Of a DNA stretch of 64,000 bases, positions 16,013 to 21,249 are shown in pieces. Position numbers and translations under genes: made by a program. The notes under the pieces were generated by a model, which saw only the letters and a program-made list of their open reading frames with translations, had not been told where the DNA came from and made no database searches. Each line of letters begins with the position of its first letter. Position 1 is the stretch's first letter. This DNA is from an uncultured bacterium (GTDB taxonomy: Bacteria; JAHJDO01), in assembly GCA_964437505.1 (NCBI GenBank), contig CAYTGU010000005.1, positions 15,645 to 79,644 of the forward strand, written 5' to 3'.

Positions 16013-17014
16013 ATGATAAAAATTTGGATTCAATTCTCGATAGGCGCAATTATAATTATTCTTGCCGGTTTTAGGTTGTCAAAGTATGGGGATATAATTG
16101 CTAAAAAGACAGGTATTGGCAGAGCGTGGATAGGAATGATATTCCTTGCCGGTGCAACAGCGCTTCCGGAATTTTTTACTACGTGTAGTTCCATAGTTAT
16201 TGAGGATGCTCCTAATTTAGCTGCAGGCAACGTCCTTGGAAGTATCATGTTTAATCTTTTTATAATTGCGATACTCGATATTGTTCAAGGGCATGGACCA
16301 ATTTTAAGGAAAGTGAATCTTGGACTGATTTTGCTTGGTGCGATTTCTGTGATCCTCTCGGTGGTGGCAATTTTGGGTATGTTGTTAAAGAATACAGTGT
16401 CAGTTTTTTCCATAGGTCCCGCAAGTTTCTTGATAGTAGGAATATATTTGATAGGTATGCGTCTTTCCTTTAGATATCAATATCGCAATTCTGATAAATC
16501 TCAGGATGTAGAAGTAAATGAAGAAAAAAAATATGAGAAAATTTCAACTTCAAAGACAATTTTCGGCTATCTGCTTTGCGCTGCGGCTATTTTTGGAGGA
16601 AGTGTATGGGTTGCTCATACTGCTAAACAAATAGCCGTAGTAACAGGATTAGGGGAAACTTTTGTTGGCAGTCTTTTCCTTGCGATAGTAACATCTCTTC
16701 CTGAGCTTATGGCAACAATAGGAGCAGTTAGAATGGGGCTATTTGATATGGCGATCGGAAATATATTTGGAAGTAATATGTTAAATATAGTGCTAATACC
16801 AATCAGCGATGTCTTATTCAGAACTGGTTCTATATATGCCTATCTATCTTCTACTCATATCCTGACAGCGATTGTAGGAATTCTTTTAACAATGATTGTA
16901 ATAATCGGGATTATTTATCGCTCCAAAAAATCCTTTCTTAAGCTTGGTTGGGATGCAATAGCTATAATTATAGTATATATTGCCAGTACATATATGGTTT
17001 TTAGGTTGAGGTAG
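16013..17014 (+). CDS. Na+/Ca2+ exchanger (CaCA/YrbG-like) family membrane protein.
   Basis: 333 aa with about 10 transmembrane helices. Alpha-repeat motifs GNVLGSIMFN and GNIFGSNMLN are present. Confidence 0.75.
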   Translation: MIKIWIQFSIGAIIIILAGFRLSKYGDIIAKKTGIGRAWIGMIFLAGATALPEFFTTCSSIVIEDAPNLAAGNVLGSIMFNLFIIAILDIVQGHGPILRKVNLGLILLGAISVILSVVAILGMLLKNTVSVFSIGPASFLIVGIYLIGMRLSFRYQYRNSDKSQDVEVNEEKKYEKISTSKTIFGYLLCAAAIFGGSVWVAHTAKQIAVVTGLGETFVGSLFLAIVTSLPELMATIGAVRMGLFDMAIGNIFGSNMLNIVLIPISDVLFRTGSIYAYLSSTHILTAIVGILLTMIVIIGIIYRSKKSFLKLGWDAIAIIIVYIASTYMVFRLR

Positions 17015-17040
17015 AATTTACGAAATAACAAGGAGGTAAA

Positions 17041-17553
17041 ATGGACTTAAAAGAGCTGATTCGGGATGTGCCTGATTTCCCAAAGAAGGGTATAATTTTC
17101 AAGGACATAACTACATTACTTAAGGATAAAGATGCGTTTAAAGAGGCGGTTGATAAACTAGCAGAAGAGTGTAAGGGGAAAAAGATTGATACAGTAGTTG
17201 CTGTAGAAGCAAGGGGCTTTATATTTGGCGGAGTGTTAGCGTACAAGCTCGGAGCAGGATTTGTCCCGCTCAGAAAACCAGGAAAGCTTCCATACAAGAC
17301 AATAAAAGAGACATACGAGCTGGAATACGGCACTGATACATTGGAAATACATGAAGACGCAATAAAATTAGGGGATAATGTATTGGTTATAGATGATCTT
17401 CTTGCAACAGGCGGAACGAGTTTGGCAACAGTTAAACTTGTTAAGAAACTTGGCGGCAATGTATCAAAGATTGTTTTTCTCATAGATCTTACGTTTTTGA
17501 AAGGCGCTGAAAAACTTGAAGGATACGACGTAAGTTCATTGATAAAATATTGA
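17041..17553 (+). CDS. apt: Adenine phosphoribosyltransferase.
   Basis: 170 aa with [13 protein letters not shown] and a [15 protein letters not shown]-binding motif. A GGAGG RBS precedes it. Confidence 0.9.
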
Positions 17554-17562
17554 TGATAATCT

Positions 17563-17638
17563 GCGCCTGTAGCTCAGTAATGGATAGAGCAAGGGATTCC
17601 TAATCCCTGTGTCGGAGGTTCGAATCCTCTCAGGCGTA
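17563..17638 (+). tRNA. tRNA-Arg (anticodon CCT).
   Basis: Manual cloverleaf: acceptor GCGCCTG/CAGGCGT (G1·U72 wobble), D arm GCTC..GAGC, anticodon stem AGGGA/TCCCT with loop TTCCTAA, and a TTCGAAT T-loop. Confidence 0.8.
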
Positions 17639-17700
17639 CTATGATGCATATTAAATTGAAAAGTGTGTATGTTTTATGTTATAAGTCTCTGTGAGTTTTT

Positions 17701-17772
17701 GGGCGATTAACTCAGCGGGAGAGTGCTACTTTCACAGAGTAGAAGTCACTGGTTCAAACCCAGTATCGCCCA
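17701..17772 (+). tRNA. tRNA-Val (anticodon CAC).
   Basis: Manual cloverleaf: acceptor GGGCGAT/ATCGCCC, anticodon stem CTACT/AGTAG with loop TTCACAG, and a TTCAAAC T-loop. Confidence 0.8.
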
Positions 17773-17808
17773 CTGTGAAATGACCGTAGCTTTTTTAGGG
17801 GGTTAGAT

Positions 17809-17982
17809 ATGAAATGCGATACGTGTGGAAAAGATGTTGCTAAGGTAAAAAGGATTGTTCTTGAGAAAGGCTATGATAGAATACAGGCAAAAGCAATTTA
17901 TAATTGCGAGGAGTGTTATAGGAAGAAAGAGACTGATATAGAGAAACGCGTTCAATCTGAGTGTAAAGAGAAAGGAAAGTAA
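17809..17982 (+). CDS. Small (57 aa) CxxC...CxxC zinc-ribbon protein: MKCDTCGKDVAKVKRIVLEKGYDRIQAKAIYNCEECYRKK...
   Basis: I translated this by hand; it is under 60 aa and so absent from the ORF track. A strong RBS (GGGGGTTAGAT) precedes the ATG. Its stop abuts the start of the next gene. Confidence 0.5.
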   Translation: MKCDTCGKDVAKVKRIVLEKGYDRIQAKAIYNCEECYRKKETDIEKRVQSECKEKGK

Positions 17983-18702
17983 ATGACAGGGCTGAAGAAC
18001 GATATTAAGTTATTGATTCAAGTCCAGGATTTAGATGTGCAAATACAAAATTTAGATACAAAGATAAAAAGAATACCCAAAGAAATGGATGCTCATTATG
18101 GGAATTTTAAGGCAAAGAAAGACGAGTTAGCAGTTCTAGAGTCAGAACTTGTTGAAATTCAGAAGAATAGAAAATTGAAAGAGGTTGAGCTTGATAGTGC
18201 TACAGAAGCAATAAAAAAATATAAAACACAACAGTCTTCTGTTAAAACGAATAAAGAATATACTTCTCTTCAGCATGAGATTGAACAAATACAAGAGAAG
18301 AATTCTATACTGGAAGACGAGATACTCTTATTTATGGAACAATCAGATGTGGCGCATAAAAATATAGAAAAAAAGGCAGAGGAGATTAAGCTGGAGAATG
18401 GAAAACTTGAACAGGAAGAGCAGGAGAATAAGAAAAAAATAGCCCGGTTTGAACAGGAACTTCAAAAAAGGCAAGAGGAGCGTACGAATTTAGTTAGTAC
18501 TGTAAATAATGCTATTGTAGCCAAATATGAAAGAATTAGGGATTTTAAGAACGGAGTGGGTATTGTAAATATTAGTGACGGAACATGTGGGGGCTGTCAT
18601 ATGGAATTACCTCCGCAGATTATAAATGATGCGAAAACTGGTAACAGAATTACTGTGTGCGAAAGATGTTCGCGTATACTGTACGTAAAGGAAGATGATT
18701 AG
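17983..18702 (+). CDS. COG1579/DUF164 coiled-coil protein with a C-terminal C4 zinc ribbon.
   Basis: 239 aa, with a long coiled coil followed by CGGCHMELP...CERCSRIL. This family commonly sits next to RNase H-like genes (as with Mycobacterium Rv2229c/Rv2228c). Confidence 0.8.
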   Translation: MTGLKNDIKLLIQVQDLDVQIQNLDTKIKRIPKEMDAHYGNFKAKKDELAVLESELVEIQKNRKLKEVELDSATEAIKKYKTQQSSVKTNKEYTSLQHEIEQIQEKNSILEDEILLFMEQSDVAHKNIEKKAEEIKLENGKLEQEEQENKKKIARFEQELQKRQEERTNLVSTVNNAIVAKYERIRDFKNGVGIVNISDGTCGGCHMELPPQIINDAKTGNRITVCERCSRILYVKEDD

Positions 18703-19209
18703 ATGGAGGAGTTAACTATATACGTTGACGGGGCATCGGCTGGTAATCCTGGGAAAGCAGGCGTCGGTGTTGTCTTTTTTCGTGAAGGGGAAAAAGTAAA
18801 GGAATGTTCTCAATACATAGGAATTACAACAAATAATGTAGCTGAATATATGGCTGTAATTTTTGCCATGCAGGAAGCTCTGATTATGGGTGTGAGAAAT
18901 ATTGCTGTTTTTACAGATAGCGAGCTTGTTGCAAATCAGGTAAATGGTGTCTATAAAGTCAAAGATAACAATTTATTTCGCTTGCATAAACAGGTTCAAC
19001 ATCTAAAAAATGGTTTTAAAAAGTTTAATATTACCCATATAGAACGTGCGGGTAATAAGGAAGCTGATAAGTTAGCAAGCAGGTCGGTTGATCGCCTCGA
19101 TGTATGTCGGGGAGGAAAGTCCGGGCTCCAGAGAGCAAGATGTCCCATAACCAGGGATGGAAGCGATTCCGAGGAAAGTGCAACAGAAAATAAACTTCCC
19201 CGCACCTAA
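18703..19209 (+). CDS. rnhA: RNase HI-like ribonuclease H (archaeal/actinobacterial type). The annotated ORF reads about 135 nt into rnpB, and the true C-terminus is uncertain.
   Basis: YVDGASAGNPGKAGVGVV...TNNVAEYMAVIFAM...FTDSELVANQ...ERAGNKEADKLA carries the RNase H DEDD catalytic residues. The ORF tail (DVCRGGKSGLQRARCP...) is encoded by rnpB P1-P4 sequence. Confidence 0.8.
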   Translation: MEELTIYVDGASAGNPGKAGVGVVFFREGEKVKECSQYIGITTNNVAEYMAVIFAMQEALIMGVRNIAVFTDSELVANQVNGVYKVKDNNLFRLHKQVQHLKNGFKKFNITHIERAGNKEADKLASRSVDRLDVCRGGKSGLQRARCPITRDGSDSEESATENKLPRT

Positions 19210-19428
19210 TTTTAGGTGCGGGGTAAAGTTGAAATGGTGTGGTAAGAGCACACCGATCTGATAGTGATATCAGGTGCATGGTAAACCCCATCTGGAGAAA
19301 GGCTAAGTAAGAGGGAAGGGACTGCTCGTCTCAATTTAACCCTTGGGTAAGCCGCTAGAGGTCGATAGCAATATCGGCGCAAGATAGATGGTCAACTATT
19401 ACAGAACCCGGCTTATAGACCTGCTTAT
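19075..19428 (+). ncRNA. rnpB: RNase P RNA, bacterial type A (rnpB).
   Basis: Contains GGAGGAAAGTCCGGGCTCC (P4 5' strand), GTGCAACAGAAA, GGTAAGAGCACACC, GGTAAACCCCA and the 3' ACAGAACCCGGCTTA. The 5' AAGCAGGTC pairs perfectly with the 3' GACCTGCTT (P1). Confidence 0.9.
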
Positions 19429-19429
19429 T

Positions 19430-20011
19430 TTATCTATAAAGTCTGTGTTTTTGTATGTAGTCTTTAACTTTCTCAGGCAGTAGGTATTTTATCGGATTGC
19501 CAGATGTTATTCTCTTTCGAATGTCAGAAGAAGAGATTTTAAGAGAGGTAATCTCCATTATCTCCGTATGGTTTTTGAAAACTTGTTTTGCTCTTTCTAT
19601 ATCATATCCTGGACGAGTTGTTACTATAAACTTACACATTCTTAAAAGCTCATCAGGAGATGCCCATCTATTTATTTCCAAAAAAGCATCTGCGCCTATT
19701 ATAAAGTATATATTAGTATCTTTTCCGTATTTTTTCATGAGCGTTTTAATCGTATCTATAGTATGTGATGCGCCTCCTCTTTTTATTTCAATATCTGAGA
19801 CCTCAAAATAAGAATTATCAGATATTGCTAATTTTATCATCTTAAGACGATGCCGAGCATCAGCAAGATTGGAAGAGGTCTTGAGAGGGTTAAGGGCTGA
19901 AGGAATAAATATTACCTTGTCAAGTTTAAATTTATTGCAAACTTCAGAAGCGCTCACAAGATGTCCATAATGAATGGGATTAAAAGTGCCGCCCATAATA
20001 CCAATACGCAT
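19430..20011 (-). CDS. nadD: Nicotinate-nucleotide adenylyltransferase.
   Basis: Contains GIMGGTFNPIHYGHL, the (H/T)xGH nucleotidyltransferase motif. Length is 193 aa. Confidence 0.88.
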   Translation of the reverse strand: MRIGIMGGTFNPIHYGHLVSASEVCNKFKLDKVIFIPSALNPLKTSSNLADARHRLKMIKLAISDNSYFEVSDIEIKRGGASHTIDTIKTLMKKYGKDTNIYFIIGADAFLEINRWASPDELLRMCKFIVTTRPGYDIERAKQVFKNHTEIMEITSLKISSSDIRKRITSGNPIKYLLPEKVKDYIQKHRLYR

Positions 20012-21249
20012 TATATTCGCACCTGCCCATTGCCGAATATAAGATATTTGTAGGTTGTGAGTTCTTCCAGTCCCATAGGTCCTCTGGCATGCAGCTTGCC
20101 TGTACTTATACCAATTTCAGCGCCCAGTCCAAATTCGCCGCCATCAGTAAATCGGGTAGATGAGTTGACGTATACAGTAGCAGAGTCTACTTCTTTCAGA
20201 AACCTGTCTGCAGATGAACTGTTTTTTGTAATTATAGCGTCAGAATGACATGACCCATATGTGTTAATGTGATTGATTGCCTCCTGTTCTGAGGAGACTA
20301 TTCTGATGGAAAGTATTAAGTCAAGGTATTCAGTTGACCAGTCTTTCTTCTTTGCCAGTTTTATTCCAGAAACAAGTTTTTTTGTTTCTCTACAGCCCCT
20401 TATCTCTACACCTGCATTCCTGAATATCTCTATCATTTGAGAAAGAAAGACTTTGGCGATATCTTTATGAACAAGAAGTGTTTCCATTGCATTGCAGACT
20501 CCCGGACGCTGAACTTTTGCGTTAAGACATACAGTTTTTGCAATATCAATATCTGCATGTTTATCAACATAAGTGTGGCATATTCCATCACTATGTTTAA
20601 TTACAGGTATGGTGGAGTTCTTAACAACAAATTTTATAAGACCTTTTCCACCGCGTGGAATTATAAGATCAATATATTCATCCAGTTTTAACATACGATT
20701 TACCATTTTACGGTCAGTGCTTTTTACCATTTGTATGCTATCAGAAGGAACTTTTGTTTTTCGCAGGCTGTTTATCATTATTTGATATAAAGCAATATTT
20801 GAATTTATGGATTCTTTTCCTCCGCGAAGAATAACAGCATTTCCAGCTTTCAGGCAGAGGCTTGCTGCGTCCACAGTGACATTAGGTCGGGATTCATAGA
20901 TTATACCTATAACACCAATAGGCACACTTACTTTTTCTATCCTTAATTTATTTGGACGGGTTGTCTTACTGAGTATTTTACCAACAGGGTCTGGGAGTTT
21001 AGTTAATTGCTTTAGGGATTTACAAATATTTTCTATTCGCTCCGAAGTTAAAGTTAGACGATCTATTAAAGCAGGGGACAGGTTGTTTCCTTTTGCACGT
21101 TTAATATCAATGATATTTGCAGATAGGATTCTAGATTTATTTTTTTCAATACCATTGGCAATGACCAGAAGAGCTTTGTTTTTTTCTTCTGTTGAAAGAG
21201 TTGCCAATACTCTTGATGCATCCTTTGCATGCTGAGCGATTTTTTTCAT
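20011..21249 (-). CDS. proA: Gamma-glutamyl phosphate reductase (glutamate-5-semialdehyde dehydrogenase).
   Basis: 412 aa aldehyde dehydrogenase fold with a ProA-type C-terminus. It overlaps proB in operon fashion. Confidence 0.88.
   Translation of the reverse strand: MKKIAQHAKDASRVLATLSTEEKNKALLVIANGIEKNKSRILSANIIDIKRAKGNNLSPALIDRLTLTSERIENICKSLKQLTKLPDPVGKILSKTTRPNKLRIEKVSVPIGVIGIIYESRPNVTVDAASLCLKAGNAVILRGGKESINSNIALYQIMINSLRKTKVPSDSIQMVKSTDRKMVNRMLKLDEYIDLIIPRGGKGLIKFVVKNSTIPVIKHSDGICHTYVDKHADIDIAKTVCLNAKVQRPGVCNAMETLLVHKDIAKVFLSQMIEIFRNAGVEIRGCRETKKLVSGIKLAKKKDWSTEYLDLILSIRIVSSEQEAINHINTYGSCHSDAIITKNSSSADRFLKEVDSATVYVNSSTRFTDGGEFGLGAEIGISTGKLHARGPMGLEELTTYKYLIFGNGQVRI

Follow-up and report, generated by a model that had tools for sequence, protein, structure and literature searches.

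The RNase P RNA gene (rnpB) of an uncultured bacterium starts inside the 3′ end of the protein-coding gene that precedes it on the same strand. The DNA analyzed here, called the window, is a stretch of 64,000 nucleotides (nt) of contig CAYTGU010000005.1, numbered from its first letter. An open reading frame (ORF) for an RNase HI of 168 amino acids (aa) occupies 18703-19209 on the plus strand, running from an ATG start to a TAA stop, and its residues 1-130 (18703-19092) make up the folded domain. A complete bacterial type-A RNase P RNA (RF00010) lies at 19076-19431 (+). The two genes share 134 nt (19076-19209, +), which comprise codons 125-168 of the ORF and rnpB from P1 to the P12 loop; the ORF list and Rfam cmscan agree with the original prediction, drawn from the letters of the window, both in placing the start of rnpB within the 3′ end of the RNase HI ORF and in locating the ORF stop at 19207-19209.

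The cmscan match to RNaseP_bact_a (19076-19431, +) scored 291.2 bits (gathering score 100; E = 3.4e-94) and spanned model positions 1-367 of 367 without truncation, and its start lies upstream of the ORF stop, not downstream. The 5′ strand of P1, AAGCAGGUC (19077-19085), was found within the RNase HI codons with the coordinates and sequence predicted, and it pairs with GACCUGCUU (19418-19426). All 9 of these pairs are retained in ten relatives, P1 joining RNA positions 1-9 with 342-350 in 10 of 10 sequences with a single change from U-A to U-G, and the conserved P4 strands GAGGAAAGUCCGG and ACAGAACCCGGCUUA are present in the rnpB alignment. Folding of the 10 relatives by RNAalifold gave 105 pairs, 22 of them with compensatory changes, among them pairs of P3, P8, P9 and P12 inside the ORF tail; as these changes come from close relatives, they represent few independent events. 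By its sequence, rnpB is a normal type-A RNase P RNA, predicted to carry out the 5′ maturation of pre-tRNAs.

Within the overlap the ORF takes in the 5′ strands of P1, P2, P4, P5/P7, P10/11 and P12, the whole of the P3, P8 and P9 hairpins, and J11/12, and the loop of the P12 hairpin begins with the three bases of its TAA stop (19207-19209, +). The proposed reading through P1-P4 thus stands as to the entry of the ORF into rnpB and has to be corrected as to its end, which is the P12 loop, well past P4. An alternative genetic code hiding an earlier stop was rejected, since the frame contains none of the three stop codons ahead of 19207 and each of them (TGA, TAA and TAG) is used to terminate ORFs of the window. 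Sequencing or assembly error was rejected as well: the identical 168-aa protein recurs on 8 contigs, of which the four shown stem from four different samples. Samples that carry the contig are JGI 3300023262, SRR7529407, ERZ27315835 and ERZ27315768. The overlap is real and the sequence correct, and the 168-aa form is present in six 90%-identity clusters. The three frames of rnpB run 135, 75 and 15 nt up to and including their first stop, and 8.7% of shuffled rnpB sequences stay open for at least 44 codons, so the length of this open frame is unremarkable.

Over residues 2-128, the RNase HI passes the Pfam cut-offs of PF13456 (RVT_3; 87.9 bits, cut-off 21.6) and PF00075 (RNase_H; 62.3 bits, cut-off 25.8), and the catalytic residues D9, E48, D72 and D122 are invariant among 37 aligned homologs. 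The NCBIfam equivalog cut-offs were not reached (PRK07238, 113 vs 326 bits; RnaseHI_Halo, 101 vs 300; RNAseHI_Thmprot, 83 vs 140), and the protein is a family-level type-1 RNase H and the equivalog of none of these three. The nearest named homologs, 52-56% identical, come from metagenome-assembled genomes of Omnitrophota/Omnitrophica and NPL-UPA2. Judged from its sequence, the protein is probably an otherwise ordinary, active type-1 RNase H.

The closest solved structures are LC11-RNase H1 (3u3g), the N-domain of Rv2228c (3hst) and Halobacterium RNase H1 (4e19), with sequence homology reaching to residue 131. An AlphaFold2 model has a predicted local distance difference test score (pLDDT) above 90 from residue 1 to about residue 130, the last helix comprising residues 115-130, and a Foldseek search with this model returned 4e19 (TM 0.95, root-mean-square deviation 0.8 Å) and 3hst (TM 0.93). 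The codon of D122 (19066-19068) is only 8 nt 5′ of rnpB, so that residues 125-130 (ASRSVD) come from P1/P2 and, in the model, finish the terminal helix. The domain had been predicted to end where P1 begins; both the alignment with Rv2228c-type homologs, which continues past the rnpB start, and the model move that end six P1/P2-encoded residues further. On the model, residues 125-130 are plausibly the sole rnpB-encoded part that the enzyme needs, as the end of its last helix. The remaining 38 rnpB-encoded residues are rich in Cys, Arg and Lys (CRGGKSGLQRARCP), with two Cys and a basic character, and include the peptides SGLQR, CPITR and DGSDSEESATENK; residues 137-168 have pLDDT below 50, i.e. 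they are predicted to be disordered.

The junction in close relatives

Alignment of the junction DNA from ten relatives (79-95% protein identity) revealed that all differences fall between ...GCTGATAA(A/G)TTAGC and the invariant rnpB start AAGCAGGTCGG. The indels measure 0, +1, +4 or +17 to +26 nt and lie between TTAGC and AAGCAGG, and 11 relatives are almost identical over the 27 nt that precede the junction. L005, L007 and L170 have the directly fused junction of the window, and each encodes 168 aa. L168 is also directly fused; a TAG that arose in the 3′ strand of its P8 hairpin through a compensatory change ends the protein at 150 aa. Insertions of 4 nt (L008) and 1 nt (L167) shift the frame to a TGA in the P2 strand GGUUGA, giving 130 or 129 aa (...KQVG*). 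In L165, L166 and L169, spacers of +17 to +26 nt encode SKICK*, SKSLEMHK* or SESLKNI*, each with its own TAA, which overlaps the first rnpB bases in L165 and L166 and ends 1 nt before rnpB in L169. A 149-aa form (P0010) carries the tail GKESPGSREQGVP, which is the second rnpB frame, with its TAA in the P8 loop. Homologs of 129-133, 149, 150 and 168 aa all occur, in agreement with the first stops of the three rnpB frames.

With boundaries set by the covariance model, the overlaps within the clade measure 134, 80, 16 and 3 nt, and every sequenced member either overlaps rnpB by 3 to 134 nt or, in L169, adjoins it with a 1-nt gap. In a neighbor-joining tree of the RNase H domain and rnpB, the fused and spacer-bearing forms are interleaved in both subclades; this tree was built without bootstrap and is suggestive only. 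The spacers of L165, L166 and L169 resemble one another; this and the interleaving are most simply explained by a short ancestral spacer that included a stop and was lost repeatedly.

The clade ancestor would accordingly have encoded an RNase HI with a few extra residues, ending at its own TAA that touched the first rnpB base. Small deletions at the junction, which the repeated AGCA/AAGCA bases there may have aided, would then have removed the 17-26 nt spacer. The ORF would enter rnpB directly and stop according to its frame, at the P2 TGA (129/130 aa), the P8-loop TAA (149 aa), the TAG in the P8 3′ strand (150 aa) or the P12-loop TAA (168 aa).

Gene order in the window and across phyla

The overlap is the 3′ end of a run of genes on the plus strand. 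It is headed by tRNA-Arg(CCT) (17563-17639, +; ARAGORN, with an Rfam tRNA score of 62.8 bits) and tRNA-Val(CAC) (17701-17773, +), the latter being the same tRNA that precedes COG1579 in many other phyla, usually with tRNA-Met(CAT). A 57-aa ORF with two CxxC pairs (MKCDTCGK...NCEECYRK; 17809-17982, +) matches no Pfam or NCBIfam family; close relatives have a 53- or 57-aa gene called at this position. Its stop abuts the start of the gene for a COG1579/DUF164 protein (17983-18702, +), a coiled-coil hairpin with a C4 zinc ribbon of the CT398/CdsZ, HP0958/FlgZ type, which matches PF24481 (65.5 bits, cut-off 27) and PF02591 (47.5 bits, cut-off 29.1) and misses the NCBIfam CdsZ equivalog cut-off (100 vs 275 bits). 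The TAG of COG1579 is followed without any spacer by the ATG of RNase HI, and zero-length spacers thus separate the three protein genes throughout. Beyond rnpB lies a convergent nadD-like nucleotidyltransferase gene (19430-20011, −), whose stop codon (19430-19432) is 4 nt past the P1 3′ strand and within the Rfam match, so that rnpB is hemmed in at both ends and no separate terminator hairpin would fit. In relatives, P1 is followed by a T-rich run. About 94% of the window is coding, and gene overlaps of 1-4 nt are numerous. That the locus is the 3′ end of a tight co-oriented cluster of tRNA-Arg, tRNA-Val, the CxxC ORF, COG1579, RNase HI and rnpB is well supported, and the predicted order of COG1579 zinc ribbon, RNase H and rnpB is real.

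Between the two tRNA genes, a possible promoter was spotted by eye at 17656-17685 (+), consisting of TTGAAA, an 18-nt spacer and TGtTATAAG. The consensus scan described below is silent there because the final base is G. As read from its bases, this element could possibly drive tRNA-Val and the genes 3′ of it.

To view the order more widely, we used 80 loci from species-representative genomes that encode this type of RNase HI, calling rnpB by its P4 motif at most 400 nt downstream on the same strand. The motif was found in 27 of the 80, so that same-strand adjacency of rnhA and rnpB is widespread; COG1579 is directly upstream in 21, and both neighbors are present in 13. All 37 of the listed loci with Rfam-placed rnpB boundaries have a full RF00010 match. 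The spacing between RNase HI and rnpB ranges from the 134-nt overlap to a 247-nt gap, gaps of 0-40 nt being common, and the phyla represented include Omnitrophota, Eisenbacteria, Thermodesulfobacteriota with other delta-type lineages, Saccharibacteria, Actinomycetota, Latescibacterota, Bacteroidota, Chloroflexi and Gemmatimonadota. In 17 of 40 loci checked, tRNA-Met(CAT), often with tRNA-Val(CAC), stands on the same strand just upstream of COG1579 (among them L085, L086, L087, L089, L096, L012, L132, L153, L114, L115, L144, L102, L112 and L073); in the window tRNA-Arg(CCT) stands in place of tRNA-Met. These comparisons suggest an ancient origin for the four-part order of tRNA, COG1579, RNase HI and rnpB.

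Among rnpB loci without an RNase H gene, COG1579 is directly upstream on the same strand, ending about 20-180 nt before rnpB, in 18 of 57 (L028, L029, L031, L033, L036, L037, L039-L041, L043, L045, L047, L049, L051, L057, L067, L068 and L073). This sample is biased, since loci with RNase H were ranked separately, and it was used only as a sample of rnpB. Possibly the cluster is built around the linkage of COG1579 to rnpB, RNase HI being a facultative insertion.

Overlaps of the ORF with rnpB also occur outside the clade. They measure 70 nt in L087 and L172 (Omnitrophota type), where P4 is read as ...EESPSSKG, 29 nt in L171, and 1-3 nt in L012-type loci, L085, L086 and L112. The original prediction of an unusual overlap thus holds in that the overlap is real and fails in that it is not singular, as the whole clade abuts or overlaps rnpB and other lineages overlap it to these lesser extents. 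Peptides derived from P4, in two different frames, were present in 18 of the 120 best protein homologs, one of them annotated by NCBI.

A set of apparent homologs was rejected. Of 80 metagenome matches, 57 are rnpB translated in frame and not relatives of the RNase H, since only residues 115-168 were matched, mostly 137-166; these 57 loci are the rnpB sample used above. Translated rnpB mimics a conserved peptide (EESATENK, GGKSG, EESP), as in loci L028-L084 and proteins P0028, P0064 and others.

Strong −10 boxes (TATAAT, TATACT, and TTGACA-17-TAAGAT in L016) were observed in the short spacer after the RNase HI stop and 11-19 nt before the Rfam start of rnpB when the 50 nt preceding rnpB were inspected at several loci (L100, L118, L141, L152, L101, L014, L016 and L120). 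As far as such motifs can tell, rnpB probably has its own promoter in these lineages.

Origin of the overlap and of the rnpB 5′ end

How the RNA would be made in the window was approached with a consensus promoter and terminator scan of 16900-20100, in which matches were no more frequent than in shuffled sequence. On the plus strand, the scan found no terminator-like site in 16900-20100 and no consensus promoter from 18311 to rnpB. The single 'intrinsic terminator' reported (19198-19223, −) was rejected as a false positive, being the rnpB P12 hairpin read on the opposite strand. The zero-length spacers, the lack of a terminator-like site on the plus strand, the lack of a consensus promoter between 18311 and rnpB, the convergent gene and the compact genome together led us to infer a single precursor. 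A promoter located at the tRNA genes would then drive a single RNA for the whole run; ribosomes translating rnhA would continue through the first third of rnpB, endonucleolytic cleavage near 19076 would free the RNase P RNA, and its 3′ end would form at the U-rich tract after P1. The cut transcript would lose the rnhA stop codon, in the short forms too; because the stop would be removed in this way, each transcript could serve as rnhA message or as ribozyme precursor, not as both. We put the odds that rnpB is released by processing of an operon transcript at about even, as judged from the DNA.

As a whole, the locus is best explained, with a probability of roughly 0.6, by an overlap that was tolerated when the spacer was lost from a compact genome and is not a designed feature, a tail that is a passenger, and an RNase P RNA processed from the operon transcript. 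Several observations weigh against this explanation. The interleaving in the tree, built without bootstrap, could reflect recombination and not repeated deletion. Spacer-bearing lineages are enriched in TAnnnT boxes 11-16 nt 5′ of rnpB (15 of 42 hits in 6 of 45 positions, p = 2e-4), suggesting that rnpB often has its own promoter even after RNase HI. The window itself has the element TGaTAAGTT at −11 to −3 from rnpB, and L008 has TGaTAAATT at the canonical distance. The contrast in codon-position bias between domain and tail, detailed below, goes in the expected direction and is not significant alone (Fisher p = 0.30; 17 variable sites). Finally, both the translation of the tail and the manner in which the rnpB 5′ end is made are inferred.

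The promoter-like element is the basis of the best-surviving alternative, in which rnpB is transcribed from TGaTAAGTT (19065-19073, +), the sole internal promoter candidate for rnpB, inside the last conserved rnhA codons. The primary transcript would then begin at the mature 5′ end or 2-5 nt within P1, and the rnhA mRNA would be a separate, longer transcript running through rnpB, with no cleavage in the coding region and with products that are not mutually exclusive. The enrichment of −10-like boxes at −16 to −11 in spacer-bearing lineages speaks for such a start, as do the TATAAT boxes of L100, L118, L141 and L152, the TTGACA-17-TAAGAT of L016, the TAAATT of L008 at −12 to −7 with a TG before it, and the near invariance of the 27 nt before the junction in the 11 relatives; in E. 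coli, moreover, rnpB transcription begins at the mature 5′ end. Against it, the element is weak: read from the sequence as an extended −10 within the A-D-K-L codons, it went unreported by the consensus scan, and TAAGTT fits TATAAT at 3 of 6 positions. Within the clade, no −10-like element keeps a constant distance from rnpB, the hexamer being 2, 3, 6, 19, 27 or 28 nt away, and relatives carry TAAATT in place of TAAGTT, or TGAATT in L165. A start from the element in the window would cost 2-5 nt of the invariant P1 5′ strand, and GCTGATAAATTAGC consists of AT-rich codons for the conserved A-D-K-L-A, the conservation of which needs no promoter. We consider an internal promoter unlikely on this balance; processing and an internal promoter could also operate together.

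The passenger status of the tail was addressed by a codon-position test on the variable columns across six frame-0 sequences. The RNase H domain has 30/15/59 variable columns at the three codon positions, a strong third-position bias (p = 5e-7 vs uniform), and the overlap has 5/5/7, with no third-position bias (p = 0.79). The P1 strand is just as invariant in relatives where it is noncoding. That the 38 residues give the RNase H a new property, such as binding to nucleic acids or anchoring to the RNA or protein of RNase P, under dual coding selection, is very improbable: the 168-aa form is kept in six 90%-identity clusters, P4-derived tails occur in other lineages too, and the tail is basic with two Cys, but sister lineages (79-95% identity) do without it at 129-133 aa, its conservation is confined to conserved parts of the RNA and its changes are compensatory in the RNA, it has neither third-position bias nor confident structure (pLDDT below 50), and other lineages use a different P4 frame (EESP vs GGKSG) that yields unrelated peptides. 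From these patterns, the tail is most likely an unconstrained, disordered passenger whose sequence is dictated by selection on RNA structure, and on the same evidence the overlap is not a dual-function coding/non-coding RNA in the sense of one whose peptide is under protein-level selection. The suggestion in the original prediction that rnhA has no proper stop and bears a tail without function agrees with these results, given the TAA retained by spacer-bearing relatives, the dependence of the fused lengths on frame, the codon positions and the low pLDDT.

That the gene is a decaying RNase HI pseudogene that lost its stop, or an artefact of sequencing or assembly, is scarcely credible, since the one point in its favor, a stop that interrupts the frame at the invariant Tyr49 codon in the related L006, is set against an exact sequence on 8 contigs from independent samples, four intact catalytic residues, the 30/15/59 bias of the domain and a confident fold model. 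L006 (62-565 of contig Ga0075121_1021574) shares the fused junction; its stop reflects either a read error or a pseudogene variant carried by that population.

In isolation, the overlap as a by-product of spacer loss is of little weight, and it illustrates an extreme of gene packing in which a protein reading frame extends over one third of an essential ribozyme at apparently no cost. It also carries a warning for annotation, as public RNase HI proteins bear rnpB-encoded tails and translated rnpB yields spurious protein matches. The cross-phylum cluster is the more valuable result: it physically ties the uncharacterized DUF164/COG1579 family and this subfamily of RNase H to RNase P RNA, gives a testable lead on the function of DUF164 and bears on the expression of RNase P RNA beyond E. 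coli and B. subtilis. A bolder proposal, which we regard as doubtful, is that tRNA-Met/Val, COG1579, RNase HI and rnpB form an ancient cross-phylum operon for stable RNAs, in which the ribozyme is matured from the 3′ end of the COG1579-rnhA message and both proteins take part in RNase P RNA or tRNA biogenesis. If so, COG1579 and RNase HI might, for instance, bind the precursor or clear R-loops from the heavily transcribed genes for structured RNAs, and in lineages like that of the window the cut that frees the ribozyme would remove the rnhA stop, so that RNase H synthesis and ribozyme maturation would compete for each transcript.

Comparison with known systems

Our literature search found no description of an ORF overlapping or reading into rnpB, or of rnhA-rnpB linkage, and transcriptome papers on Borrelia and Leptospira gave no usable statement on the rnpB 5′ end. 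The legend of Fig. 3B in Pereira et al. 2011 (PMC3372290) places tRNA-Met and rnhA beside flgZ (DUF164) homologs in several phyla and the RNase P RNA gene of Borrelia burgdorferi downstream of a DUF164 gene; the paper does not discuss rnhA-rnpB linkage or overlap. Relative to that paper, the present analysis adds the order tRNA, COG1579, RNase HI, rnpB measured across many loci and a junction resolved to the base.

Like the N-domain of Rv2228c, Halobacterium RNase H1 and LC11-RNase H1 (3hst, 4e19, 3u3g), the RNase HI of the window has a fold of about 130 residues without a basic protrusion and with a DEDD site (39-41% identity, TM 0.88-0.95). Unlike them, it has its last helix finished by rnpB P1/P2 codons and continues into a 38-aa disordered extension, and it lacks the CobC/acid-phosphatase domain fused to Rv2228c. 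In the M. tuberculosis pair Rv2229c-Rv2228c, a COG1579 gene lies upstream of the RNase H as in the window. The RNA shares with other type-A RNase P RNAs (RF00010, e.g. E. coli M1 RNA) a full-length match, P4 and the J-regions, the closing helix P1 and covariation. In E. coli, rnpB stands alone as a gene and is transcribed from the mature 5′ end onward; rnpB of the window, by contrast, has its first 134 nt inside an upstream same-strand ORF, a convergent gene 4 nt past P1 and no clear promoter of its own in the consensus scan.

Stable RNAs borne on mRNAs are known in the form of small RNAs derived from 3′ untranslated regions (CpxQ) and in mixed tRNA-mRNA operons (E. coli thrU-tyrU-glyT-thrT-tufB). 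In such systems gene and RNA are on the same strand with no terminator between them, the upstream stop can lie inside the RNA, and tRNAs and mRNAs can belong to a single transcription unit. The window resembles these systems in its same-strand arrangement with no terminator-like site between RNase HI and rnpB; it differs from them in that the embedded RNA is an essential ribozyme of 356 nt, one third of it within the ORF, and that its processing is proposed from the sequence. In SgrS/SgrT and RNAIII/hld, too, the same bases serve an ORF and a functional RNA structure, but the peptides there are functional and conserved, unlike the tail in the window with no sign of protein-level constraint. 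The arrangement is that of a coding gene overlapping a downstream same-strand RNA gene, and its components are ordinary members of RF00010, type-1 RNase H and COG1579/DUF164.

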